Source: Vermamoeba vermiformis (Eukaryota). From it: 64,000 nucleotides of DNA. The notes below the pieces were generated by a model, which saw only the letters and a program-made list of their open reading frames with translations, was not told the origin of the DNA and ran no database searches. A program made the position numbers and the translations under genes. The stretch covers positions 372,001 through 436,000 of the forward strand of contig JBEWZL010000300.1 in NCBI GenBank assembly GCA_045837725.1, read 5' to 3'. Positions 1-47,647 of this stretch are shown here, one piece after another (position 1 is the stretch's first letter; each line of letters begins with the position of its first letter).

Positions 1-2512
1 TTCGAGCGTCACACTAGTCTTGTAGGTAGCCAGTGAGTACGGGTGGCTGCGCAAGAAGTTCTTGTATTCGCGTGAAGCAGCCTCGCGGAGCACGAAGAAT
101 CGAGCATCTTCGAACTGCAAATTGGCCAGTCTCTCGAACGCCTTCTTCACGAGAATGTGTTGCTTGCAATTGTAGCCTTTGACTTCAAGCTAGAATAACA
201 GTTAGATTACCTGCTTATCTACGTGCAGTACTTACAGCTAGACCTTCAACGGTGTTACTGAGGGCGTAGCTGAGGCCTGCGATATCGGCGTCATAAGCGA
301 ATCTAAGCTATTAGTTAATACACGTAGTATTATGATTGCTGTACGTACTCATTCAATGAGTCAGTCAACAGCTTGCAGAACAGCTTGGACATGACGACAG
401 CTGAGGGACTTTCATAAGCGACAGGACTGTTGATCTCAAAGTTCAAAATGGCACGAGGCAATTTGAATGTGGTATCTTGTTTGAACCACAGCTTCATCTT
501 GTTGTCACTGCGCAATAAAATGGGCACGGGCGATGAGAACTTCTCGGTGGCTTGTTTAATAGTGAAGTCATCAGGAATGAACGGGTTAGGTGCGGGTAAG
601 TGCAAGTCCTTCTCAAGCGGTGCGTTCAACCATTGCTACAAAGATGTTAGGAAACAATGCTTCAACGATGCTACCAATATTTACCTTGATTTCTTCGTCG
701 GTGATAGCCTCCTCGCTGTAATTGACCTTGTACCATCGCTCTTCTTTATCAGTCTTGCCTTCAAACTTGGTCGAGATGATGGACACACGCAAGTTCTCGG
801 GGGTGAAGTAACCGAGAGTTTGGTGGATCAACTCGGGGTCATAGTCCTCGTTCAAATGATCGCCAGCCAAGATGTATTTCTCGGGATAAACTTGCATGTT
901 TTGAGCAACAGTAGGCAAGTATCTAAAGGGCTCTTCCTTGTCCTTGAATCTGAAACCCATTTCAGCTAATTGACGGATCTGCACGGAAGTTAGTTTCAGC
1001 GTTAAACAGCCATATTAATATCACGTACTTCTCCGAACAATTGCTCAGTGACACCTTCTTTTTTGATCAAAGAAATGTATTGGAACACAATAGCGATAAT
1101 GTCGTTCACGTGCTCTTCACCTTCAGGAGTGAGGGCAACGTTGATTTTGAACAGCGCAAAGTCGCTTTCACTGGTGGTAGGGCCGGCAACGAGAGCTGTG
1201 GCCCAGCCTTTGTTCTTCAAAATCGACAAAATTGAACCTGGACCCTCGTGACCAGTCAAGTGCGACAAGTAGTGCGCTGGCTTCTTGGTGTACAAAGAGT
1301 GTTGTCCGGGGATTGGCCAGCACAAGTCGAGACTGCGCAAGTCTTGCACGGGCACAACACTGAATCTCTTTCTCAACTCGGTTTGAGTGAAGGGCTTGCC
1401 ATTGAACTTGGGCAGTGTCACGTGCTTGTTCTTGACACCGCTGAACATGTCACGTGCCCATTTTTCCAATTGGTCTAAAGGCTCTCGGCCCAAAATGCAC
1501 AACTTCATAATGTTGCTCGAGTAATAGGTCTCGTGGAACTTCAACAATTGTTCGCGAATATCACTACGAGACTTTAAGGTCTCCAAACTGCCCGTGCCAA
1601 ACTTGGAGTACGGGTGTTCTTTGCTGGCAGTCGAGTGCATCAATTGATCCTCGCGCCACAAGTCACTTTGAAGGTTCTTGCTGTGCTCTGTAGAGACGAA
1701 TTAGCCGCATCTTATTAATTTTCCGTGACGTACCGCTGTCAACAGCATTCATCTCGCGCTCAGTAGCAGATTCAGTGAATAAGGGCGCTACGAAGAACTG
1801 GGCAAATCTTGACAGATCTGCGATTAGTATGCGGTCAGACACGGTAAAGATTTTACAGTACCTGTCAAGAGCTCCTTCTAATTGATTGGCATTAATTTCA
1901 AAATAGTAGTTCGTGTCTTCTGCAGCAGTAAAAGCGTTGGATTGACCACCGTGCTAAGCAGTAAAGTTCAGTTTGTGGAGTTAATTAATGAAATACCACG
2001 GTTGTGGCTAATTACCTCATTAATGAAATCGCCGTATTCAGATTCGTTAGGATACTTCTCTGTGCCCAAAAATAACATGTGCTCTGTTCGAATTGCGCCA
2101 TGAATAAAATGAAATTCAAAAAAAATATTGGAAAATAATTATTTAAATGGCATTGCACTGAAATAATGACTCGTAGCAAATTTTGAAGATCGTTATATTA
2201 CCCAAAAAATGTGCCAGACCCGGAACTTCCTCTGGGTCGAAAAAGCTACCAACATGAACATCCATTGAAGCGCCAGCCTATAAAGCATTAGAAATAAATA
2301 GAAAATTGTAGTAACAAGAAAATCCGTTCTGATTTTACCTTTTCAGAAGCTGGATCTGAGATTAGCATAACCTGCATCTCATTTTCAAGACGGATCACGC
2401 GATACAAGCGGTCGTCGCTCTCAGGGACTAATAGCGCAGTATTTGCAGAGGCCATTGGGAGCAATGTTGTGAGGTACAGCAGAAGTAATATGAAATAACA
2501 CGTCTGTTGCAT
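1..2512 (-). CDS. IDE: Insulin-degrading enzyme/insulysin (M16A metallopeptidase), multi-exon, 3' end runs off the window
   Basis: Spliced exons give D.RLYRVIRLENEMQVMLISD, inverted zinc motif LAHFL|EHMLFLGTEKYP, GSNAFT, HPYSKFGTGSLETL, HLTGHEGPGS and LWFKQDTTFKLP. In-frame ATGs at 2512 and 2455. Confidence 0.95.
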
Positions 2513-29001: not shown

Positions 29002-32000
29002 ATGAACCCACAAACGAGGCCATTGCCTGCAACCAATAAACAGCCGCCGAACACGCCACCAAAAGGATGGGCAAAGGCGAGCATTAATGGCAATAATTCA
29101 CCTAATGGCGCTAGTCCTACAATATCCAGGGCTCTACCTAAACAGCCTAATCAAAATCAACAGACGCCGAGCCCTACACCAGCACCTCCAAAGGGATTAG
29201 CTAAATCCACCGCTGTGCCAATTCCAAACAGACCACGAGGAGTTCAAACAACAGCACAATTGCCAAATTCATTACCTAGCGCAAGTGAGCTAAGAAATGG
29301 CGTTAACAGAAATGTAGGTTTAGACTTTCGAGATCAAGCAAAATATTCTGCAGTATTTTTCAATCAATTATATTTTGAATATTTTTTGCTCGTAAATACC
29401 AATATTATCTTCTATATACTGCAGGTAAATTTTTGATTAATTTTTTTGATTGATTTTGTCGCATTTCGATATTACTATAAATAGAAACCACCTCAATCAG
29501 TTTAAATAGGACTAATAATCATACCTAATTAGATACCCTCACCTCCTGCTCGAAAAGGTTTGAGCAACTCTTCGAGCTCCATCCCGATCTCAGTATCTTC
29601 GAGCCCTAAAGTTAACAGCCTTGGTAATTCTCCGATGAATTCTCCGCCAGCCAATAGTCCTGTAAATCAAATGAGCTCGCCTAGTCCTGTTAAACGAGCT
29701 ATTTCTGGTCCAAAACAACAAAACAACGGATCTCGACCCACATCTCCCACACCAAAAGTGACAATCAGAAGTGGCCCTAATAGCAATGCCAATAGTGCTA
29801 ACAATTCACCTGCTGTATCCCCACGGCGGAACAATGAGCCGGATGAGGCTTGGCGCGAGTCCAGAGGCAAAGTCATTCGTGAACTCGTCGAGACTGAGCA
29901 GATCTTTCACTCTTTTACTCAAATTTTGATTAATGTAAGTCCATAATATTCAGATTGATATTGTTGAACGATAATTGTTTGATCAATAATTGGAAATTGA
30001 TCGGCAGACTCACATTTCAATTTAATTCATTGCTTGACTTTGACATATTGGTGATAATTATACAAATGTTCATATTATTATAGTTACTAATAATATTATA
30101 GCGCTTTTTGATTCCATTGAGAAATAGTGACAAGATTGTCGGATCTGGCGAGACACTGAAGTTATTCGGAAATATTGAAATGGTGGCAGCCGTTAGTATA
30201 GACGTACGTGGAATATACGTATTAGTATTTGATCTAATAATATCATCATAGATGTATAATGAATTACAAAAGAGAATTGCGGATCCGATTGAAATGTCAA
30301 AAGTTGGCGAGGTTTTTTCGCTAAAAGTAAGACTTTATGTCATATAATTATACTAAGGTACTTATACTAACAATTATAATTAGGCAAAAGAAATATCATC
30401 GATTTATAAAGCCTATTGCGTGGGTCATAAAGAAGCAGTCGAATTATTTCAAAAATTAAAGAAAAACAAAGCATTTTCAGCATTCTTAGAAGTAAGTTAA
30501 TATGAATATTAGTAGTAAATACTATATATCGCATACTATATTGTAGTACTGTGCTAACTGAAATATTTTTAGGAAGCTTTTGAAGATCCGTCCTGCAAGA
30601 GGCTATTACTGACCGATTTCTTAATTATGCCCGTGCAGCGCGTTTGTAAATATCCATTATTATTAGACGTAAGTAATGCTCCCTTCATATCACAACTATT
30701 AACCGGATGCGACCCCAGTACACGAAACTTTATTCGTTCTTAAATGCGTAAAATTTCAATATTATTATTGCGTTCAACTAAGTAACGCAATTACTATTAT
30801 TAGAAAATTATCGAAAATACGCCGAAGAGTCACCCAGATCACGCGGCAATGCAACAAGGTTTTGAAACAATTAACAGCTTGTTGCAAGTGGTCAATGAGT
30901 CTGCTAAAGAGGCTGAAATGCTCACTGAAATATTGCGTGTAGAATCAAAGATTAGTGATATCCCTGAGGTACGTACTGGCCCAGATCTGGCTTTCCAAAA
31001 AAGGAAAATTTTTGTAACGGCTTATCCGCGGCTATCTCTTTCATCAAATACGAATTATAGCGATATAATAACTATATCTAGCGATATTAACGCATATTTT
31101 GGCATTTAGAATTTAAAACTAGCGGTTCCAGGTCGAACACTAGTGCGCGAGGCAAAATGGACTAAGATCTCAAAGAGCAATGTGCAAGAGCGCCAGTTCT
31201 TCATGTTCTCGGACATGCTAGTCTACGCCAAGTTGAATTTAATGAAGAAAGAGTCTTATGAATATAAAGGCGTTTGTCCTTTTTACACTTGCGAGTTCGT
31301 GGATCACGCGGATTCAGGTAACACTTTTCAATTCCTTATCAAATAATAACCCTATAACGCCATGATATATTTCCATGGAATTATCCGTGTTGATGCTAAT
31401 ACTACTTAATTTGTAGGTGACGTCAAAAATGCGATTGCAATTATTCGCAAGGACTCGTCGCAAAAGAAGTACATTATTTACACAAAAGACCCGCAACAAA
31501 AGAAAGACTGGCTCGCACTGCTGCAAGAGGCTGTTAAGAATTTGAATGGCAAAAATAATGCCGGCAATGTTAATGCTAAAAATAACGACAGTAAGTCACG
31601 TGCACGGATTAATCTTTGCAATTATTTATTGCCGATAAATTAACGACAATATTTGCAGGCAATAATCCGTTGTTGAAGCGAACGATGAGTAGTTTAACGA
31701 GCCATAAAGACCGCATCACAATGGTCCAGATTGAAGATCGAATTAGCGGCTGGAAGGCACGTGATCGAGTTAATTCTTATTTCTATATTTAGTAACCGAC
31801 ATTGCCTTATTTAGAACGACAACGCCGTGCGAACCTATATTGATGAAGGACCAATTGGGGTGATGAAAGAGGGGTCCTCGAGTGTGGATCAGCGCTACTT
31901 GTTCCTGTTCAACGACATTGTGCTGCTCGCCAAACAAGTGCGCAAATTATCGACCAAGAACCCATTTCAATTTGTCAAGGCCTACGAAGTCAAATCGAAT

Positions 32001-36149: not shown

Positions 36150-36854
36150 TTACCATTCAGAAACAGCGGAAGCTTTCTTCCACGAAGGTCTGTTCGAAAC
36201 CTCGGACCACCAGCGCATAAAGTTCTTGTGTTTGCCATACAAATCTGCGTACTGAGGGAGAGCTCCAAGAACGAGGTTGGTGTAAGGCAAGTAGACAATA
36301 TCTGCGTACGAACAGCATTAAAGACCCGTCTAATATCGTATATTGTAGGAAATTGAATACTTACCAGCGACAGTGAAGTGATCGCCAGCGAGGAACTTGG
36401 ATTTAGCCAAGCGAGCGTCGAGAACAACAAGAGCTTGTTCCAAGCGCTTCTCGGCATCCTTGACCTTGGCTTCGTCGCTAGGGAAACCTTTCATTTTGGC
36501 GAAGAGGAGTTGAACGGCAAGATCTTCCGCAGCGTTGTAATAGGATTGCTCAACAGAGATCCATTGCTCGATAACTCCGCGAGCCTTAGCGTCGGCAGGG
36601 TAGAGAGTACTAGTCGTATCATAAGCTGAGGCAATGTAGCGAGCAATGGCACGAGATTCGTAGATTTGGTAGTCGCCATCTTGAAGCACTGGAACTTTAC
36701 CAAACGGCTGCTTGTTGGCAATATAGTCAGGGGTCTTCATTTGCTCCATGCCAACGGTCTCGAATTCGTAAGGCAAGCCAATCTCTTCGAGCGTGGTCAA
36801 TACACGACGAGTGCAGGTGGATCCGCGCAAACCAAAGACTTTAAGTTGAGCCAT
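36150..36854 (-). CDS. Glutathione S-transferase, phi-like
   Basis: STCTRRVL, QPFGKVPVLQDGDYQIYESRAIARY, LDARL.KSKFLAGDHFTVA|DIVYLP. Confidence 0.93.
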
Positions 36855-36953
36855 GTTAGCTTAGTGGTGAGTAGTGGTGTTGTAGATAGAGGTGAGTAGT
36901 TGAATGAACTGTTTGATGAATCGGTAGAGTGCTATTTATGGATAAAATAACAA

Positions 36954-37959: not shown

Positions 37960-38440
37960 CGTTGTGGGTGGATTTGTACCGGATTCGCTGAGTAGAGTTC
38001 TTTTGTATTGTACAGCTTTGTCAGTAATTGAATGACGAATGTGAATCTAAATTGCTTATATATCCTCGTTTCGTAGGTTTCAATTTTGCGATTTTTAATT
38101 TTCGTACCCTACTTTTTTTGGTTATGAATAAAAACGAAAATTGGAAAAATTACTGTACCTACTGCATGGGATATACCGGATAATTACCTCTACTTTGATA
38201 CATATTCAAATGCTGCGACTGTTCAATGGTGTGCAAACATGAAAAACCGTACCATGGGATCTGCTAGCAGCGTCAGTGCCGCGCGGAACCCCGTACTACT
38301 CTGTAACGTCTGTAGTTCGAACGACTGTAAAAAATAAATTTATCAGTACTATTTTAATGCTGCGGAGTCCTAGTGTTCGCTGAAAATGACTGGCTGTCAA
38401 TTTGTCGTTTTTTTCCCAACAAAGCAACACCAGTCATAGA

Positions 38441-39013
38441 ATGGAACAACGCGCATTCTTGAAAATAGTACCACTGGGCAGTGGTGGTGTTGGCAAGACA
38501 TCTATATGCATTAGATTACGCGATGATGTGTTTTCTGCGGACTACGATCCAACAATCGAAGAAAATTACAGAAAGCAGTTTGTTATTGACGATGAGACTG
38601 TAGTTCCAGAATTTTTCGATGTAGTAGGACAAGAAGAATTTGTTACCATATTAAATGAGTGGATTAGAGAAGCAGATGGAATATTTTTGATTTATTCAAT
38701 TACTTCACTCGCTAGCTTTGCAGAAATTCAGGAAAAATATTACAATATGATATTGAGGGTCAAAGAAGATGCAAAAGTGCCTATAGTGCTCATTGGAAAT
38801 AAATGCGATCTCGAAAATCAAAGAGGCGTTACACGAGAAATGGGCGAAGAATTAGCGAAGAAATATGGCATACCATTTTTTGAAACGAGCGCTAAGACCA
38901 GCATCAATGTTTTTGAGAGTTTGACAGCGCTAGTCAGAGGGATTCGTAGGATCAAATACCCGTCACCTTCAAATCAGAATAAGAAGAAGAAGAGCGAATG
39001 TAAATTATCTTAA
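38441..39013 (+). CDS. Ras-family small GTPase (intronless)
   Basis: GSGGVGKT, YDPTIEENY, DVVGQEEF, NKCD, ETSAK, polybasic tail and CaaX CKLS. Confidence 0.92.
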   Translation: MEQRAFLKIVPLGSGGVGKTSICIRLRDDVFSADYDPTIEENYRKQFVIDDETVVPEFFDVVGQEEFVTILNEWIREADGIFLIYSITSLASFAEIQEKYYNMILRVKEDAKVPIVLIGNKCDLENQRGVTREMGEELAKKYGIPFFETSAKTSINVFESLTALVRGIRRIKYPSPSNQNKKKKSECKLS

Positions 39014-39523
39014 TGCAGGTAAGCTTAATTGTAAATTATTTCTGTTCGAACAGCAATTTCTCAACCGATCAAAGAGCAGCTCAAGGACAGGTAGACAACG
39101 GATTTTAGCAAAGAATTCACAAGAGACATTCTTCATGCCCTCTAGGTCCACCAAATTAACCTCGTCAGTATGGCGCGGACTAGTACAATAGTCACTATTG
39201 AAAATTGGTCTTGATTGATTGGTTCTACAAACTGAACAGTAGACGAGAAAATAGTCTAAAACGAAGAATATTAGCTGTAAGTTATAAAGAGTTGAAATAT
39301 TACTTCGTGTAACGTGCTGCTGAAATTCTTTATTTGGATCAATCTGAGCCTTTCGCCAAATTAAGCAAGTAGGTACGAGGACTATAGTTATATCGACAAG
39401 TCGAGCTGATTTGCTGTTAAAGAGTACCACTCACTCGTAATCTCGCGTTAATCTGGGCTAAGAAGCGTCGTGCACAAATTTTAACTAATTTTTATTGTTT
39501 GTCCGTCCATTCATACTAGTCAT

Positions 39524-40091
39524 ATGGCAGATAATAAGATACACTTAAGGTTTGTATTGCTCGGTGGTGCGCCGAAAACAGGGCGACTGACTCTTGTACT
39601 TCGTTACATCCACCACCGTTACGTTAAGAATTACGAACCAACGATAGACGACGTTTATAAAAAGACATATACACTAGGCGATAAACAATACAGTCTTGAG
39701 ATGATATTACCGCATGATCACGAGCAGTATCATGCACTACGCGAAATGCAGATTAGAAGTGGCGACGGATTTTTGTTAGTCTATTCAGTGGACTCCAAAG
39801 AAAGTTTTTCTAATATTCCATTATTATACGAAGAGATTTATCGATACAGAGAGGATAAAGTCCCGATTGTAATTGTTGGAGCTAAATCCGATAAGTTTCG
39901 CTGCGACAGAGTTTCTGAAGAACAAGGCCAAGAAGTGGCGCAGATTAAATGTTCGACACATAGAAGCGAGCTCCAAACACGATGTTAATGTGGCTGAATG
40001 CTTTGTGGCGTTAATAATGGAATTTGAACGGATGGAGGCTCTGAAGCAAGCAAATACGAAGAAAACTAAAGGCAGGTGTATTATATGTTGA
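39524..40091 (+). pseudogene. Degenerate Ras-like paralog with one frameshift near 39940 (pseudogene or sequence error)
   Basis: YEPTIDDVY, GDGFLLVYSV, then second frame HIEASSK..VNVAECF...KKTKGRCIIC; G1, G3 and G4 degenerate. Confidence 0.75.
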
Positions 40092-40320
40092 TAAATTAAA
40101 TTATTGTAATATTGAAGAATTGAAATCAACAGATCAAGACCAACATCCAGCCCGTTTTAATTCTTATTCGATTCTTTGAGAATAATATGCCATTCCGAGA
40201 CAATTATTATAATACCAAGAACCATAATGCCTCGTCATCGTATTATGTGAGCTCATTCGTGCAAAAATACTTTTGTGCCGCGTCACGTTTCATTAACATT
40301 TCCCACACAACAAGAACACC

Positions 40321-41704
40321 ATGAGAGTTGGCCGCACTTATCGAGTACCGCGCGGCTCTTCTGATTGCAATAATGCCTTTGTGACAGTAGTAGTAACGGC
40401 CTTGCTGCTAATACTCGGATCTGTTTGGATTGCAAAAGAGGTCGAACAGGTCAGATTTCAAACGGCGCATGCAGAGGTCTCGGAGAAAGTGTACCCGCTT
40501 CAAGGAGAACATGATGCATCGTCTTATTACGAAGGTAGACTTGTTTACGTTAATTCCACGTCACCTGTATTGCCCGTACCTCCGCCAATGGATGTCGACT
40601 TCAATTTACGTGTAAGTGCTTGTATAATTTTTTTAACGTTAGTAGGGTCACTGCACATTAATTCGTGGCCTATAAAATACGCGTATTCTTTTGCTATATT
40701 TTTTTAAAAATTAAAGAATAACTATTCACGAAAGAATTAAATTTAGGAATTCTACCCTAGTCACCAATAACAAGCATTAACCATACTTCATTTATTAGTT
40801 TCCAGCTGGTGTTCGTATTCAACGATCAACAGAATATTGTCAATGGCAAGAGATTTCACACGAAGAGGAAGACGACGAAGGCAACAGATTCAGAACTTAC
40901 ACTTATGTCTTGGGCTGGCACAGCACTACTATTCCTTCGATCTTCTTCGATCAGCCATTCGCGCACAACAATCCGCAACGAGATCCCGCGCCAGCCAGGG
41001 ATTGGGTAGCAGATGCGGCCAAGATGGGCAGCTTAACATTGGACAAATCGTTGTTGCAATACGCTGATCCTTTAGATGCCGTCGACTTTGCTGTAAACAG
41101 CCCAGCGTTGCAGCAATTCTCACAAAGTGTGGCCGCGCGTCAACACGACTTTAAGTACATCGGCCAGGGTTATTTTTACAGCCCGTACAAATCCGATGCC
41201 ACTGAATGGCTGCGCATTGCAGGCATGGCGCTGGAAGGCTCGTTGTTAGACTATCAAATCGGCGACCTGTTCAAGCGCTGCACACCCGGTGACGTGCGTG
41301 TCTCGTACTCGCAAGTCGCGCTGCCCACGGCCTCAGTGATCGCCGAGTATTATCCTGGCGGCAGATTAGGACTGCACAAGACACAAAGCAATTACGAGCT
41401 CGGCATCGTGCACAAAGGTCTGATGACAACCAAGCAGTTGTTTGAATACCGCTTGTTGCAAAACTTTTGGTCTTCGTTCTGGTGGCGCCTTATCTGCCTC
41501 GCTGTGTTCACGGGATATCTTTATATTCTCGCCAACCGCAAGTTCTGGGTCACACTCTTCACTGTCGTCGCAGGCATGGGCGTTGTCGCAGCAGTAGTGC
41601 GCATCATATTTGGTGTGTCAGCCACCAAGCCCATTGGTCTCGTTGTCCTCGCCGCTGCCACTTTGTTCTTGATGCACGGCAAACCAGTGCTCAAACGAGA
41701 GTAA
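40321..41704 (+). CDS. TMEM43/LUMA-like (DUF1625) membrane protein
   Basis: N-terminal TM, EGRLVYV, RSTEYCQWQE...TYTYVLGWHST.I.S..F..P..HNNP, PGDVRVSYS, C-terminal TMs. Confidence 0.8.
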
Positions 41705-41818: not shown

Positions 41819-42728
41819 CTATGCCAATAAGGGCTCAATGTCCGCTGCAATTGAGTTGGGGTTGGCACCTGAGCCGTATCGCTTGACAGGTGTGCCGTTC
41901 TTGTCAACAAGGAACTGCAAAAACATGGTCAAAACATCGTCGAGCAACTTTTTCACTGTCTTTGTACTCACTTTTTCGAAGTTCCACTTGATGTCTCCGG
42001 GCAGTTTATTCTTCAAGAATGAGAAAAACAACTTTTTCTTATTCTTCAAGTACGTGTACACTGGTGAAGTGTTGGGACCGTTGACGTCAATCTAGCGCAC
42101 AGGTCAGGAACGTGATGAACTACTATTCTTATCTCTTACCTTGTCCAGAACGGGGAAAGTGACCTTGCGAGCAGAGCAAAAGCTTTCAATCTCTTGATTG
42201 GTGCCGGGCTCTTGCTTGCCAAACTAAGAGGAATAAAATGGGTCAGAAGGGATCCGTGAAAGTTTGTAAATTACTGGGGCGTACTTGGTTGCAAGGGAAA
42301 GCAAGGATTTCCAAGCCTCTGTCCTTGTACTTGGCGTACAATTGAGGCAATTCTTCGTAGTTTCCTGGTAAAGTTTAAGACGGTAAGAAGGATGTGGTAT
42401 CAAAATGCGGAATGAAAAGGAATTGTCAGAATACCGTTGAAATATCATTAACCACAATATATTAACGATATTCGTATGGTTCTGATAGAAAACGAAATAC
42501 TCCGAAGATTTTTTCCGAGGTCGCGCGATCGTGCATTAATAAAAAGAAATACTCACCAGCAGTGTAACCGCACTTGCTTGCGACATTAACAATGAGTGTG
42601 ACCTTATTTAAAATTGTTAGGAATATTTTTAAAAATTATCCAAGCTGGATCCGTACTTTGCCCTTGAACTTTGAAAAGTCAACTTCATGGCCCTTAATAT
42701 CCTTAGCTTTCAAATCGAAGAATGACAT
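41819..42728 (-). CDS. Glutathione peroxidase, Cys-type
   Basis: [10 protein letters not shown] (TGC codon, not TGA), [27 protein letters not shown]. Confidence 0.95.
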
Positions 42729-42993
42729 GGCTCTAGTCGTATAGTTGCGAGGTCGTACTGCGTATGTGGCTCTGATTAGCTGTCGTGAAAACATTTGCCC
42801 GACTTTTGAATTTGAACAACTTTGTGCGGGTCATCACGTGCGACCAGCTGATCCAAAAAAAAATAAGCCTCAAAACATCCTTGAAGACCATTATAGATAA
42901 TTGCACAAACCTTGAAAAGAAAACGTTGCGTACTTGCAGTTAAATTGCACGAGCTCAACGACTGTAAGATTCGAAATTGAAGTAACAGTTAAA

Positions 42994-43856
42994 ATGTTGG
43001 CAGCAATTAAGAATGCATTTTCGTCGTTGACTGGTAGCACGCAAAAATCACCACATTTATTAATGGTAAGTTAGAGCGTTTTTAAACGAAATTTACTTCC
43101 GAAATTTGTTCCCTGAATCCAAAGACCCCCTTGATTTCTGCTTTGTAAATTACCAATAGTCTTATAAATTATAGTATCAAGTACTTGAATTTTCATATTA
43201 AAATCGCACGACGTACAAGCAAAAATTCAAATATTCTGTTTTCAGATGGGACTGGATGCCGCAGGCAAGACCACGATGATGTACAAATTCAGAGAATACG
43301 AAATACTGCACTATCCGCGCTTTGCAACCGAATCAGCAAAAGTACTCGGTACTGAGATCTTTAGCTTCGATCCTCTTCCTGTTCGTGAAGGCGCGACGGA
43401 TCCCCACTCAATAGCAGTAAGCCTAGTATTCAGAAAATTGTTACAATTGTTATTAACGATACTAATTAGAAACGAGAGTTCGTTAAAAGTGAAGTAGCAA
43501 AAGCAGATGCGCTAGTTTGGGTAATAGATTCGACAGACCAAGAGCGATTCGACGAAAGCAAGTTTGAATTGGAAAGAATACTCAACTTAAAGGCATCTGC
43601 TACTATCCCTATATTAATCTTGGCGAACAAGCAAGATCTACCGAATTTTGTACCGGTCGAGCAGATTAGCAACAGATTCAACTTGCAGGCACTTAAAAAT
43701 CCTTGGAATATATTCCCAACCATGGCTAATTCAGGCGAAAATCTTTACGAAGCATTTGAGTGGCTGTTGTTGACATTAAAAGATCAAGGATTTAAGATAC
43801 ATCATGCACTCGAACCAGTGGTAAGGGCCAATTGCGAGATTAAGCCAAATTCATAG
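42994..43856 (+). CDS. Atypical Arf-like GTPase
   Basis: GLDAAGKTT, LVWVIDSTDQER, LANKQDLP, SGENLYEAFEWL; no Gly2 and no WDVGGQ motif. Confidence 0.82.
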
Positions 43857-43960: not shown

Positions 43961-46900
43961 TTAGATCTCGTTGTTCATCTTCTTATTGAATAAATCAACA
44001 TAGACCTTCTTCGGCGAGTCTTTAGTAGGCAATTGAACCTTCATCTTGGTCAGTTCGCGCTTGAGATCGTTTTTGTTCATTTTTTCCGGATCAATGCGCG
44101 CTTTCTTCGCTTGAGGCTTGTCTTCATCTTCATTATCCTCATCATCATCGCGTTTTCTATAATTATAATAGTTGTTAGATCATACTCAAAGACTATCAGA
44201 GTTATAACGTACCTCTTTCGGCTGGATGCAGCAGCGCTCTTGGTTGGGGCAGGAGGCTTTTCAGGCGTGTCTCCAACAATATCAAACGAGCCTTTCTTGC
44301 TAACTAAGAGCTTGTGCTTGGGTTTAGGAGCCGCTTTGCGACCTGATAACGCACAAAAAGTTAGATCCGCTCGTGTCAAAAGTGTCATAATGTCACAACG
44401 TACCTTTAGCCTTGACAGGTCTGTCAGTGTCAGAGCCATTCTCTTTGTTCTCCTTGTTGTTAGTGCTAGCCACAGATCGGTCATCTTGCGACATGTCTTC
44501 AACGTCGTTGTCGAACATGAAGATCTCGGGCTTTTCAACTTCCATCTCGACTTCAGTAGCGTTAGTGTTGCTCTCAGCTTGAGCTTTGCGTTTCTTCGAA
44601 GCAGTTGAAGCTGCTGGCGTCTTCGTGGCCTTGGCGGCATCTTCGAAGGAAAACTTGGATGCCGTCATCTGAGCCTCCGCGAGCTTAGCTTTGAGCTCCT
44701 TAATCTCTTCTTCTAACTGACGGCTAGCATCTTGTGCTTTGACTTTAGCGTTAGATGCAACAAGGATCTCTTTGTCAGCTTGAATCAGTCGATTTCTGAA
44801 GCTGTCAGCGTCAGTCGCGAGTTGTTTTTGCAGAGTTTTGACTTCTTGTTGCAACTGCTCGACTTGTTTGTCTGCACGACTTTTCTCTTTCTCCAAAGCA
44901 TCACTCTTCTTTTGCAGGTCAGCAGTCAATTCCTTGACTTGTCTCGCGAGCTGAGTGTTGGTCTCTTTTTCAGCCTTCAAATTAGCCTCGTGTGTTTGAC
45001 GCTCTTTTTGAGTCAAGTTCGAGTTGCTCTTCAAGCTTTCAGTCAAATCTTCGACGCGTTTTTCAAGCGCAGACTTCTCTTGCGATGATTTTTTCAATTG
45101 ATCCTTGACACGCTCGAGCTCACCAGCCAAGTTATTTTTCTCTTGCTCAACGACACGCGCCTTCTTTTGCAAGTCAGTGCTCGTAGCCTCGTGGCCTTTA
45201 GTCTCTTTCTCCAATCTGTCGCGCAACTCCTTGATCTCCTGAGTGAGTCTCTGGTTCTCTTTTTCAGCGTGTTGCAATGATCTGTGACGCTCTTGTGACT
45301 CGTTCTGCACATGTTTCACGTGGTCTTCTTTCATTCTAATTTCTTCTTTCAACGTCTTGACTTGTGTCTTGTATCCTTCCTCAGTAGCTAAACGTAATCA
45401 TTAGTATCAATATAAAGACAAATCATTGCAGTCAGTACTTACACTTCAATTGTTTAGCTGCTTCGTCGAGTTGGCCGCGAGTCTTGTTCAATTCACCTTC
45501 TAATCTCGTCTTTTCTTTCTCCAAGTTTTGACTGCGCTCTTTCTCGCGCAACTTTTCACCGGCCTCACGTTGTGCCTCAAGTTCATATTTATGTGCCCTC
45601 TCTTTGGCCTGATGTACTTCTTGTTGCGAGGCTTCAAATCGCTTGACAGCCTCTTCAGTCCTCTTGCGCTCTTGCTCTATTTTAACGGTGTTGTTCTCGT
45701 TCAACTGATCCACGAACTGCGTGAGAGATTGAGGCAAGTAATTGGTTTGGAACTGATTCAAGACCGCCAATTTGTTAGCGCCCTTGCTGCCCTTATTAAA
45801 CTCAGAAGCGATCAGTTTCCACGAGGCAATCAAGTCGTGCGAGGTTTGGAACTGCTTTGCCTTGAGCTTGGCCTCCACGTGCTTGTCGTACAGTGCCTGC
45901 AACAATTGCGCGTTGAATTTTTCCGATTGTCTGTCGTTGGCTTCACTGAACAACTTGAACACCTCATCGAGAGATTGCTGCAAATAGATTAGTATCACTA
46001 TGTTTGGTAATACTAGCGATCTCTAATCTTACCTCGAGTTTTGGTCTGAATTGGGTCTTGACATCGCCCAAGGCATTGTCTTCAAAGTGACTCACTGCAG
46101 CACGACGCAGTTCAGCCTCCAACTTCTTGAGCTCAACTTCGTCAATCGGAATGCGCTTCTCGAGCTCTTGCAACTTGGATTTGTAGCCATTGACTGACTC
46201 TTCCAAGGCAGACTGGCTCTCAAGACGAGCAACACTAGCAAGTTAAAAAACGTCAGTAATACTGTCACCCTGTTGACACGTGTCAAACACTAACCTGTCC
46301 CAAGCTGAATGAATTGTAGGCACGCCACCACCGTTGATGCTTTCGAGGTACTTGGTCATCAACATCACGAAGCCTAAGCTGTTAGTTAATACGGTTGTGT
46401 TATTAATGTACTAGTATCGTACCTTTGCCATCGATGCTGCGGCCGAGAATTTTCTTGGTTGGTGTCTCTTCAAAGATTTTATCCTTCACTCTGTCCATCT
46501 GAGTTCTGAACTCTGGACGCAACTTGTTATAAGGTGTTTTGTCGATTCGTTGCAAGTCCGACTCGTCGACGACGGGGCGTACTAAAGTGACGCAATCTCT
46601 GTTCGCAAACATCGTTCTCAACTTGCGTCGAATTTCGTTTTTAGTCTCCTGATGAGGTCTAATAAAATAAATTATGTTAGAAATGAAAGCAAGTTTTGAA
46701 AAATCTATTCGCGCGTTCGTAGGAGCTAAATATACCTGTCTTGTAAGGCATTTTCTAAATATTGAGTCGAAGTAATGGGTCTACCGGATTCGTCTTCGAG
46801 TTTTAACGAAAAGTCTCGCAAGAGCCATAAAAAGCCCGGGAAATAATCTGATAATTCTCTTTCGCTAGTCTTATTGCCTAAAAATTACGTTAGACTTTAC

Positions 46901-47647
46901 TCTTACGATTGAATGAATTCGCGCCATTTTTTGAATTGAATTTGTATTGAAAATCTCGATAGATTCGATGTGATACGTACTATTAGACTTGACTTGGATA
47001 TTCTGCGTTAAGTTGGCTACGAGAGATAACTTATCAAGGGCATGCTCATGTAAGAAGCAGTTAAAGAAAAATGGTGGATCTTGGATCGAAGTTAAATTAA
47101 ACAGAATAGTATTAAAAGGATATCAATCATGCCCATGCTGTTGTAAATAAAGTATGAACTTAATAGCAACGTCAAAGAGAAGATTTTGGCGTCGTAAGTC
47201 TGATCTTGTTGAATGGATCCAATTCCTTCCGTGTCAATCAGAATGTAATATATTTTCTTGCCATTCTTCGTTGTTTCGATAGGTCTACCCCACGTATAAA
47301 TTCCTATTATAGTCGTAAATATAAAAGGAACAGAGGGATCTAGAAAAAATTTATTTTACCTTTCGTGCACGGATTTACTGTTGGACCAATTGCAAAACCC
47401 TCTTGTTTGCCCAACAATCTATTTAATACGTAGCTTTTGCCGGTACTGCAATAATATTTAATTATTTTTGAATTAATTTTCATTTATTCTTACGGATTGC
47501 AACTTACCGATAGAGACCAGCGACACCAATGACACCGATTTCACCTTTAATAGATGAGATCATTTGCGCTGCTTGCTCGCCAAGCACGAATTTGCCATTC
47601 TGCAACGTGATGAGTGGCAGTGCTTCTTCCGTAGGTTGCTTGCTCAT
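43961..47647 (-). CDS. Guanylate-binding protein (GBP) GTPase with long coiled coil, NLS-like tail and C-terminal LEM-like/HeH domain
   Basis: VAGLYR|TGKSYVLNRL, PCTKG|I, LIDTEG, YFIYNSMGMID, FLWLLRDF; heptad-rich middle; C-terminus DPEKMNKNDLKRELTKMKVQLPTKDSPKKVYVDLF. Confidence 0.9.
47050..47123 (-). other. U12-type AT-AC spliceosomal intron (74 nt) in the GBP gene
   Basis: 5' site ATATCCTTTT, branch TTCTTTAAC, 3' end TAC; removal restores MG-M-I-D-E-H-A-L-D-K-L in frame. Confidence 0.92.

Follow-up and report, generated by a model that had tools for sequence, protein, structure and literature searches.

GBPs are usually viewed as defense GTPases that coat membranes or pathogens, and a GBP gene of Vermamoeba vermiformis raises the question of whether some members of the family work on chromatin instead. 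The gene lies on the minus strand of a 64,000-nt stretch of contig JBEWZL010000300.1 (the window; all coordinates and strands given here are positions in it) and encodes a protein of 992 amino acids (aa), which we call the window protein. A first-pass annotation, made from the letters of the sequence, had described a GBP GTPase fused to a long coiled coil and a LEM-like domain, and had proposed a lamina-like, chromatin-binding scaffold of the nuclear envelope. Our analysis favors a reading to which we give a probability of roughly 0.6: the window protein would be a nuclear GBP that is tethered to chromatin or DNA via its C-terminal helix-extension-helix (HeH) domain, associates with itself, and works like the plant protein GBPL3.

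Between 43961 and 47647, the listing of minus-strand open reading frames contains only fragments, as expected where a eukaryotic gene is spliced. We joined 12 exons from 47647 down to 43961 into a coding sequence of 2979 nt that stays in frame and has no internal stops; with an ATG at 47647-47645 and a stop codon at 43963-43961, the gene limits proposed at first pass (43961-47647) turned out to be exact at both ends. Ten of the 11 introns are GT-AG and one is AT-AC. A related database protein of 989 aa from a 3.9-kb contig (P0001) is 89.2% identical to the window protein (885 of 992 columns), and the alignment has gaps at none of the 11 exon junctions. A spliced contig of 993 nt from a close relative (public run X1), with 95-99% identity to the window, has 7 of the 11 predicted introns removed, among them the AT-AC intron 3 (74 bases); introns 10 and 11 lie outside the coverage of the X1 spliced contigs. 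The locus is a real, spliced eukaryotic gene coding for a large GTPase of the GBP type.

The G domain claimed at first pass is borne out by Pfam, in which exons 2, 3, 5, and 6 each scored above the PF02263 cutoff (E 2e-5 to 6e-12). Exon 8 scored above the cutoff of PF02841 (GBP_C; E 1.6e-5), and P0001 matched both families, PF02263 over residues 18-275 (E 9.8e-63) and PF02841 over residues 278-574 (E 1.1e-25). An alignment with human GBP2 (7e58; E 6.7e-59) covers about residues 11-575 and keeps the G motifs in register. In the 992-aa protein these are GLYRTGKS (G1) at residue 44, TKGI (G2) at 74, DTEG (G3) at 99, and LLRD (G4) at 177. The catalytic residues of such GTPases lie within these motifs. 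Since all four are kept, nothing argues for a dead GTPase, and the sequence is most likely that of a GTPase-competent GBP of the dynamin superfamily. Identity to P0001 is 95.4% in the G domain, 85.3% in the coiled coil, and 91.7% in the tail. With the interferon-inducible human proteins GBP1, GBP2, and GBP5, the window protein aligns over the G domain and the whole helical domain and shares the four G motifs, including the P-loop arginine. Unlike them, it has no CaaX box and extends some 415 residues further at the C-terminus, through coiled coil, linker, and HeH domain, and its target would be DNA or chromatin and not membranes.

The extreme C-terminus is the part that sets the locus its question. 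The last exon alone matched PF08198, the LEM-like family of LAP2/thymopoietin, scoring 29.9 bits where the gathering score is 28.6 (E 4.6e-7) over profile positions 6-45 of 48, and a 48-aa tail piece reached 31 bits. Searched as a single sequence against the Protein Data Bank (PDB), the tail aligned, at E 0.022, to 1h9e, which is the LEM-like domain of LAP2, and the LAP2 sequence that the first-pass annotation had given agrees with 1h9e as aligned. The top match of the PDB search, the CLEC4M neck repeats (3jqh, E 8.5e-4), is the sum of six repeat matches, each with an independent E of at least 59, and was rejected as spurious. We built a family profile from an alignment of 20 family tails (A1) and compared it with PDB sequences, obtaining 1h9e at E 2.3e-12 and 1gjj at E 4.9e-11, followed by the SAP domain of THO1 at 0.064 and CDNF at 0.37-0.45; no solved chain in the search other than the LAP2 LEM-like domain matched significantly. 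When the 20 tails were scanned singly at E<=1, 17 matched PF08198 (best 1.9e-12), nine matched the HeH family PF12949 (best 3e-8), and five matched SAP. None of the 14 Pfam families that the 20 tails matched at this threshold is the true, BAF-binding LEM family PF03020, and the true LEM domain of LAP2 (the second domain, 1gjj) gave at most 2.5 bits with the tail and with the family profile. Comparison of the C-terminus with LEM and HeH profiles had been set beforehand as the test by which the idea could fall; the PF08198 score above cutoff and the profile match to 1h9e speak for a LEM-like/HeH kind of domain, and this part of the earlier proposal stands. We conclude from these comparisons that the tail is a predicted LEM-like/HeH domain of the SAP/LEM superfold and not a BAF-binding LEM domain. 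Direct DNA binding by the LEM-like domain was reportedly described by Cai et al. in 2001.

Structure prediction, suggested at first pass as a check, is compatible with this assignment. AlphaFold2 (AF2) returned a helix-extension-helix from the single sequence (predicted local distance difference test, pLDDT, 73) and, with A1 as input, at pLDDT 79.6, placing helices at positions 12-21 and 33-46 of the 48-aa piece with an 11-residue extension that holds a conserved LP. The fold matches lie below significance, and the structural neighbors are mostly SAP domains, the emerin LEM domain, and LAP2 (1gjj Z 4.5, 1h9e Z 3.9, both at 32% identity); the best match in the ESM Atlas, a SAP cluster at 0.86, is a lead only. 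SAP domains (THO1, Ku70, PIAS, SAF-A; PF02037) share the two-helix superfold predicted for the tail and appear among its neighbors at Z 4.0-5.9, but the family profile lies much nearer LEM-like sequences (E 2.3e-12) than SAP ones (THO1, 0.064), and the conserved LP and the second helix K..Y(V/I).L(Y/F) of the tail are LEM-like/HeH features. With the LEM-like domain of LAP2 (1h9e, 1gjj) and the HeH domains of Heh1, Heh2, Src1, Lem2, and MAN1, the tail has in common a helix-extension-helix of about 40 residues, predicted in its own case, and the pattern DP..L(T/K)...LK.EL.....V.LP.....K..YV.LY. Those proteins carry the domain at the N-terminus and are either integral to the inner nuclear membrane or soluble isoforms, whereas in the window protein it is C-terminal and belongs to a soluble GTPase for which no transmembrane segment is predicted. 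Pfam found neither an MSC domain nor a second (true LEM) domain in the window protein or P0001. The window protein shares a domain with the LEM-like/HeH membrane proteins, yet is not a member of their family.

Between the GBP fold and this tail lie a coiled-coil-like extension and a linker. Hydrophobic residues recur with a 3.5-residue period that exceeds shuffled sequences by z 3.4-9.8 in 56-aa windows starting at residues 477-729, with a single exception (the window starting at 673, z 0.8), in keeping with the long heptad stretch seen at first pass. Residues 561-800 contain at most one proline or glycine per 40 aa, the E/K/Q/R/L content of the coiled-coil-like extension is 50-62%, and the only Pfam families that matched the extension are coiled-coil families, every match being below its cutoff. 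The basic clusters reported earlier are present as KKRK at residue 821 and RKRKR at 926, joined by KKAR at 945, and we infer that they are putative nuclear localization signals (NLSs). The C-terminal string quoted at first pass is there too, and no CaaX box ends the 992-aa protein, in which position -4 is not a cysteine. A segment of transmembrane strength was not found either: the highest 19-residue Kyte-Doolittle mean, 1.22, falls within the G domain. Identity as a lamin or intermediate filament was considered and rejected, with PF00038 (Filament) at 13 bits against a cutoff of 40, no match to a lamin tail, and no CaaX box; the lamina-like scaffold proposed at first pass goes beyond this evidence.

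How far the architecture extends among GBPs was assessed with a HMMER scan of P0001 against 1.84 billion representatives, which gave 6141 matches at E<=1e-3, the best 150 of which were analyzed. The tail motif recurs at the extreme C-terminus of many of these GBPs, as phmmer and hmmsearch showed. A combined tail hidden Markov model (HMM; independent E, iE, <0.01) placed the tail no more than 35 residues from the C-terminus in 29 of the best 150 GBP representatives, 26 of these 29 having been in the training set of the HMM, and the architecture search proposed at first pass thereby returned the GBP plus LEM-like tail combination. Another 21 of the best 150 have a cysteine at position -4 (CaaX-like) instead of the tail. 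The existence of tail and CaaX as alternative ends suggests a swap of a DNA anchor for a lipid anchor within one GTPase family. Taxon look-up of 30 proteins identified six named amoebozoan tail carriers (Clastostelium, Flabellula, Cochliopodium, Rhizamoeba, Phalansterium, and Arcella), the malawimonad Gefionella, a pedinophyte and Astrephomene among green algae, Mesotaenium and Spirogloea among streptophyte algae, and the lycophyte Diphasiastrum; the remaining tail carriers looked up are environmental records. With the 62-aa lycophyte tail as query, a word-based search returned the paralogue of that protein only and was uninformative. The single GBP of Dictyostelium has a signal peptide and a transmembrane end and is not a tail carrier (PMC8565484; here and below, articles cited by PMC number are cited for the parts of their text available to us). 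As judged from these sequences, the architecture is not unique to the window gene and is common to Amoebozoa, a malawimonad, and green plants.

The intact G domain and the occurrence of tail and CaaX as alternative ends (29 and 21 of the best 150 representatives) would also suit a cytoplasmic GBP of cell-autonomous defense, in which the tail seizes foreign DNA, from viral factories or lysed bacteria, and the polymer coats nucleic acid. Animal GBPs are defense proteins (PMC8565484). However, three basic NLS-like clusters adjoin the tail, and the proteins with a homologous tail that have been studied, all from the plant GBPL1/3 clade, are nuclear (PMC12489281). There is also no sign that the gene is inducible or evolves rapidly, identity to P0001 being 95.4% in the G domain and 91.7% in the tail, and we consider a defense role of this kind improbable.

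Published work indeed places plant GBPL3, which the first-pass annotation had named as a nuclear-periphery protein, at the nuclear basket and the lamina, on chromatin (pericentromeric chromatin included), and in nuclear-envelope reformation after mitosis (PMC9629626, PMC12489281). At endogenous level its main sites are the inner nuclear envelope and the pore (PMC12489281). Its C-terminal extension is described as a coiled coil, a region that is intrinsically disordered (IDR), plus an NLS (PMC9629626, PMC12489281), and a 2025 review ascribes its chromatin binding to 'SMC-like domains' (PMC12489281); the parts of these two articles available to us mention no SAP, HeH, or LEM-like domain for GBPL3. 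A literature search by titles, which did not include Huang et al. 2021 and Reimann et al. 2023, returned no paper tying GBPs or GBPL3 to SAP, HeH, or LEM-like domains. We searched with the lycophyte protein and obtained 860 matches at E<=1e-30, the best 120 of which are land-plant proteins, mostly of about 1065 aa (range 1008-1097), one of them annotated GUANYLATE-BINDING PROTEIN-LIKE 3 (Hibiscus). A tail HMM with amoebozoan seed sequences matched 118 of 119 land-plant GBPL-type C-termini (query excluded) at iE<=10 and 104 of 119 at iE<0.01, and the last ~45 residues are strongly conserved across the land-plant proteins examined. Comparison by hhalign of A1 with an alignment of 16 plant and algal tails (A2) gave a probability of 97.8% and E 1.3e-12 over 49 columns. 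In Pfam the plant tails show matches below threshold only (SAP in 6 of 10, HeH in 2 of 10), and the tail may lack annotation for this reason. These profile comparisons indicate that land-plant proteins of the GBPL3 type carry a C-terminal domain homologous to the amoebozoan LEM-like tail, apparently overlooked so far.

The same comparisons bear on whether the tail might be a SAP-like module that binds protein or RNA and docks a chaperone or nucleoporin, as the C-terminal domain of MANF and CDNF does with BiP. The C-terminal domains of MANF and CDNF are the top Foldseek neighbors of the tail (query TM-score, TMq, 0.70-0.72), and the plant-tail profile matches CDNF at E 4.2e-4. The amoebozoan profile, on the other hand, is significant for the LAP2 LEM-like domain only (E 2.3e-12, against 0.37-0.45 for CDNF), and the CXXC motif that MANF and CDNF possess is absent from the tail. 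LEM-like/HeH domains are moreover described, in a review of the nuclear-envelope proteins of Dictyostelium, as DNA binders that, in organisms without BAF, contact DNA directly (PMC11816917). A docking module of this type therefore seems very improbable to us. We find it scarcely credible that the tail is an artefact, with a last exon foreign to the GBP transcript or a chance likeness to LAP2. It is true that introns 10 and 11 are outside the X1 spliced contigs and that the single-sequence match in the PDB is weak (E 0.022), but P0001 is continuous across both junctions and has the same tail at its end, the tail stands at the extreme C-terminus of 29 of the best 150 GBP representatives from many taxa, and the profile E values are 2.3e-12 with 1h9e and 1.3e-12 with the plant alignment.

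The plant GBPL1/3 clade is defined by GBP and GBP_C domains, a coiled-coil/IDR extension, and an NLS in proteins of 1000-1100 aa (PMC12489281). The window protein fits this definition in its parts, in its size of 992 aa, and in having no CaaX box or transmembrane segment. Compared with members such as Arabidopsis GBPL3 and tomato SlGBP1/2, it has the same succession of G domain, GBP_C, and coiled-coil/disordered extension with NLS-like clusters. The two differ in the tail, which in plants has no LP motif, has a longer extension, and stays below threshold in Pfam, whereas that of the window protein passes PF08198. They also differ in their place in a FastTree phylogeny of 135 rows, from which 22 short rows had been removed beforehand: the window protein falls in an amoebozoan group of 19 rows, 18 of them tail-bearing (SH support 92), a placement that points to a probable amoebozoan source. 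The plant group stands apart, with 16 rows of which 14 bear the tail (SH 100), and orthology is not supported by this tree. A 54-row clade (SH 93) encloses both groups together with 6 CaaX forms and 13 other forms. One ancient fusion followed by losses, or repeated fusion, are both possible origins of the tail.

Taken as a nuclear GBP tethered through its HeH tail, the window protein could work as follows. The basic clusters would carry it into the nucleus, where the HeH domain would contact DNA or chromatin directly, without BAF, and the G domain together with the coiled coil would allow self-association regulated by nucleotide. The outcome would be a multivalent, GTP-tunable tether of chromatin to structures of the nuclear periphery, similar to GBPL3. 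Nuclear import, direct DNA binding, GTP-driven oligomerization, and a place at the nuclear envelope are each predicted from the sequence. The domain evidence is equally compatible with a nucleoplasmic chromatin or transcription factor whose tail binds DNA or RNA and whose GBP and coiled-coil parts form condensates on genes, with no role at the envelope. Such a factor would resemble the plant GBPL defense condensates, which bind promoters in the nucleoplasm, and GBPL3 itself is nucleoplasmic in pollen (PMC12489281); SAP domains are common in nucleoplasmic proteins, and THO1, hnRNP-U-like, Hcc-1, and PIAS are among the fold neighbors of the tail. Against this, endogenous GBPL3 is found for the most part at the inner nuclear envelope and the pore (PMC12489281), and the nearest solved sequence relative of the tail is the envelope protein LAP2, although neither point is decisive for an amoebozoan protein. 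We regard a purely nucleoplasmic role as rather unlikely.

Several results weigh against the GBPL3-like, chromatin-tethered reading that we prefer. The PF08198 match of the window tail is barely above threshold, and full-length P0001, at 22 bits, is below it. Foldseek found no PDB match at E<=1e-3 for either tail model, and the Z scores of the VIA structure search (3.9-6.4) are below the caution level of that tool, which is 8. The best PDB match of the plant-tail profile is the BiP-binding C-terminal domain of CDNF, and SAP-like folds can bind proteins too. The putative NLSs are judged from the basic clusters alone, and the link to GBPL3 is made through plant homologues and not through the Arabidopsis GBPL3 sequence itself. 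In the tree, the tail-bearing GBPs do not form one clade, requiring at least 7 label changes (well-supported branches force 3 of these), and the tail-bearing plant and amoebozoan groups have CaaX forms between them; common ancestry with the plant architecture is therefore unsupported. Finally, the raw RNA runs X18-X20, which carry the same species label, hold 5, 2, and 4 reads, too few for expression or splicing.

Features of the GBP gene and of neighboring genes in the window (residues are those of the 992-aa protein)
Feature	Residues	Coordinates	Strand	Basis or remark
Exons 1-3		47647-47508, 47445-47360, 47303-47124	minus	gene model
Exons 4-6		47049-46981, 46877-46736, 46658-46423	minus	gene model
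Exons 7-9		46373-46295, 46234-46033, 45977-45443	minus	gene model
Exons 10-12		45387-44404, 44342-44213, 44156-43961	minus	gene model
Intron 3, AT-AC, U12-type		47123-47050	minus	donor ATATCCTT; TTCTTTAAC 10 nt upstream of AC
GBP large-GTPase domain	18-275	46451-47596, exons 1-6	minus	PF02263, GBP2 alignment, motifs
GBP C-terminal helical domain	278-574	45335-46444	minus	PF02841, GBP2 alignment
Coiled-coil-like extension past the GBP fold	575-800 (~225 residues)	44657-45334	minus	heptad periodicity
Low-complexity linker with acidic runs	801-944	44108-44656	minus	composition
KKRK cluster	821	44596-44585	minus	NLS-like, in linker
RKRKR cluster	926	44220-44150, across intron 11	minus	NLS-like, in linker
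KKAR cluster	945	44107-44096	minus	directly before the C-terminal domain
LEM-like/HeH domain (predicted)	947-989	43973-44101, inside last exon	minus	PF08198, profiles, AF2
Arf-family small GTPase gene		43189-43856	plus	PF00025 E 1.9e-23, last exon
Gene between the TMEM43 and Arf genes		41819-42830	minus	no Pfam match
TMEM43/LUMA-family gene		40799-41701; an upstream exon near 40297-40707 is possible	plus	PF07787 E 3.2e-31
Two adjacent Ras-family small GTPase genes		38390-39013, 39485-39988	plus	PF00071 E 1.2e-45, 3e-27
Glutathione S-transferase gene		36330-36860	minus	GST_N E 4.7e-16; GST_C 5.4e-5

A scan of the window found one GBP locus only and one significant tail match only. A second tail-like site at 31410-31640 (tail HMM E 0.043) was set aside as a PH-domain fragment, as indicated by sub-threshold Pfam matches. 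The TMEM43/LUMA-like gene that the first-pass annotation had placed about 2 kb away is real and lies 2260 bp from the GBP stop codon, with two genes between; no link between it and the GBP gene is supported, and their closeness may be chance. One of the two intervening genes, the Arf-family gene, runs toward the GBP gene in convergent orientation, and 105 bp separate the end of its last open frame from the GBP stop codon. The other had been read by eye as a glutathione peroxidase, but both of its pieces, 41819-42091 and 42636-42830, are without a Pfam match at E<=0.01; it contains a WNFEKFLV-type motif that we take to be glutathione peroxidase-like, a likeness unconfirmed by Pfam. Intron 3 is read as U12-type by comparison with the U12 consensus. 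As a U12-type AT-AC intron in the GBP gene is spliced out in the X1 contig, a minor spliceosome appears to be present in the organism.

Work on plant GBPL3 has established a role at the envelope and chromatin and has left open how chromatin is contacted. The known part of the present case is the nuclear GBPL3 of plants; the new part would be a GBPL3-like nuclear GBP with an explicit LEM-like tail of the DNA-binding type. This module stands exactly where other GBPs have their CaaX box, and a homologous module ends GBPL3-type plant proteins. The idea of nuclear GBPs may in this way be extended past plants to Amoebozoa and a malawimonad, and a soluble GTPase would join the short list of protein types bearing LEM-like/HeH domains outside animals and fungi. 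We tentatively raise, as possible but doubtful, a wider proposal: a widespread and perhaps ancient lineage of nuclear GBPs in which a HeH/LEM-like tail has taken the role of the CaaX lipid anchor and which polymerizes on chromatin at the nuclear periphery. If this were true, nuclear GBPs would polymerize on chromatin, for example in envelope reformation, rather than on membranes, and GBPL3 would owe its chromatin binding to an overlooked C-terminal domain and not to its 'SMC-like' coiled coils.

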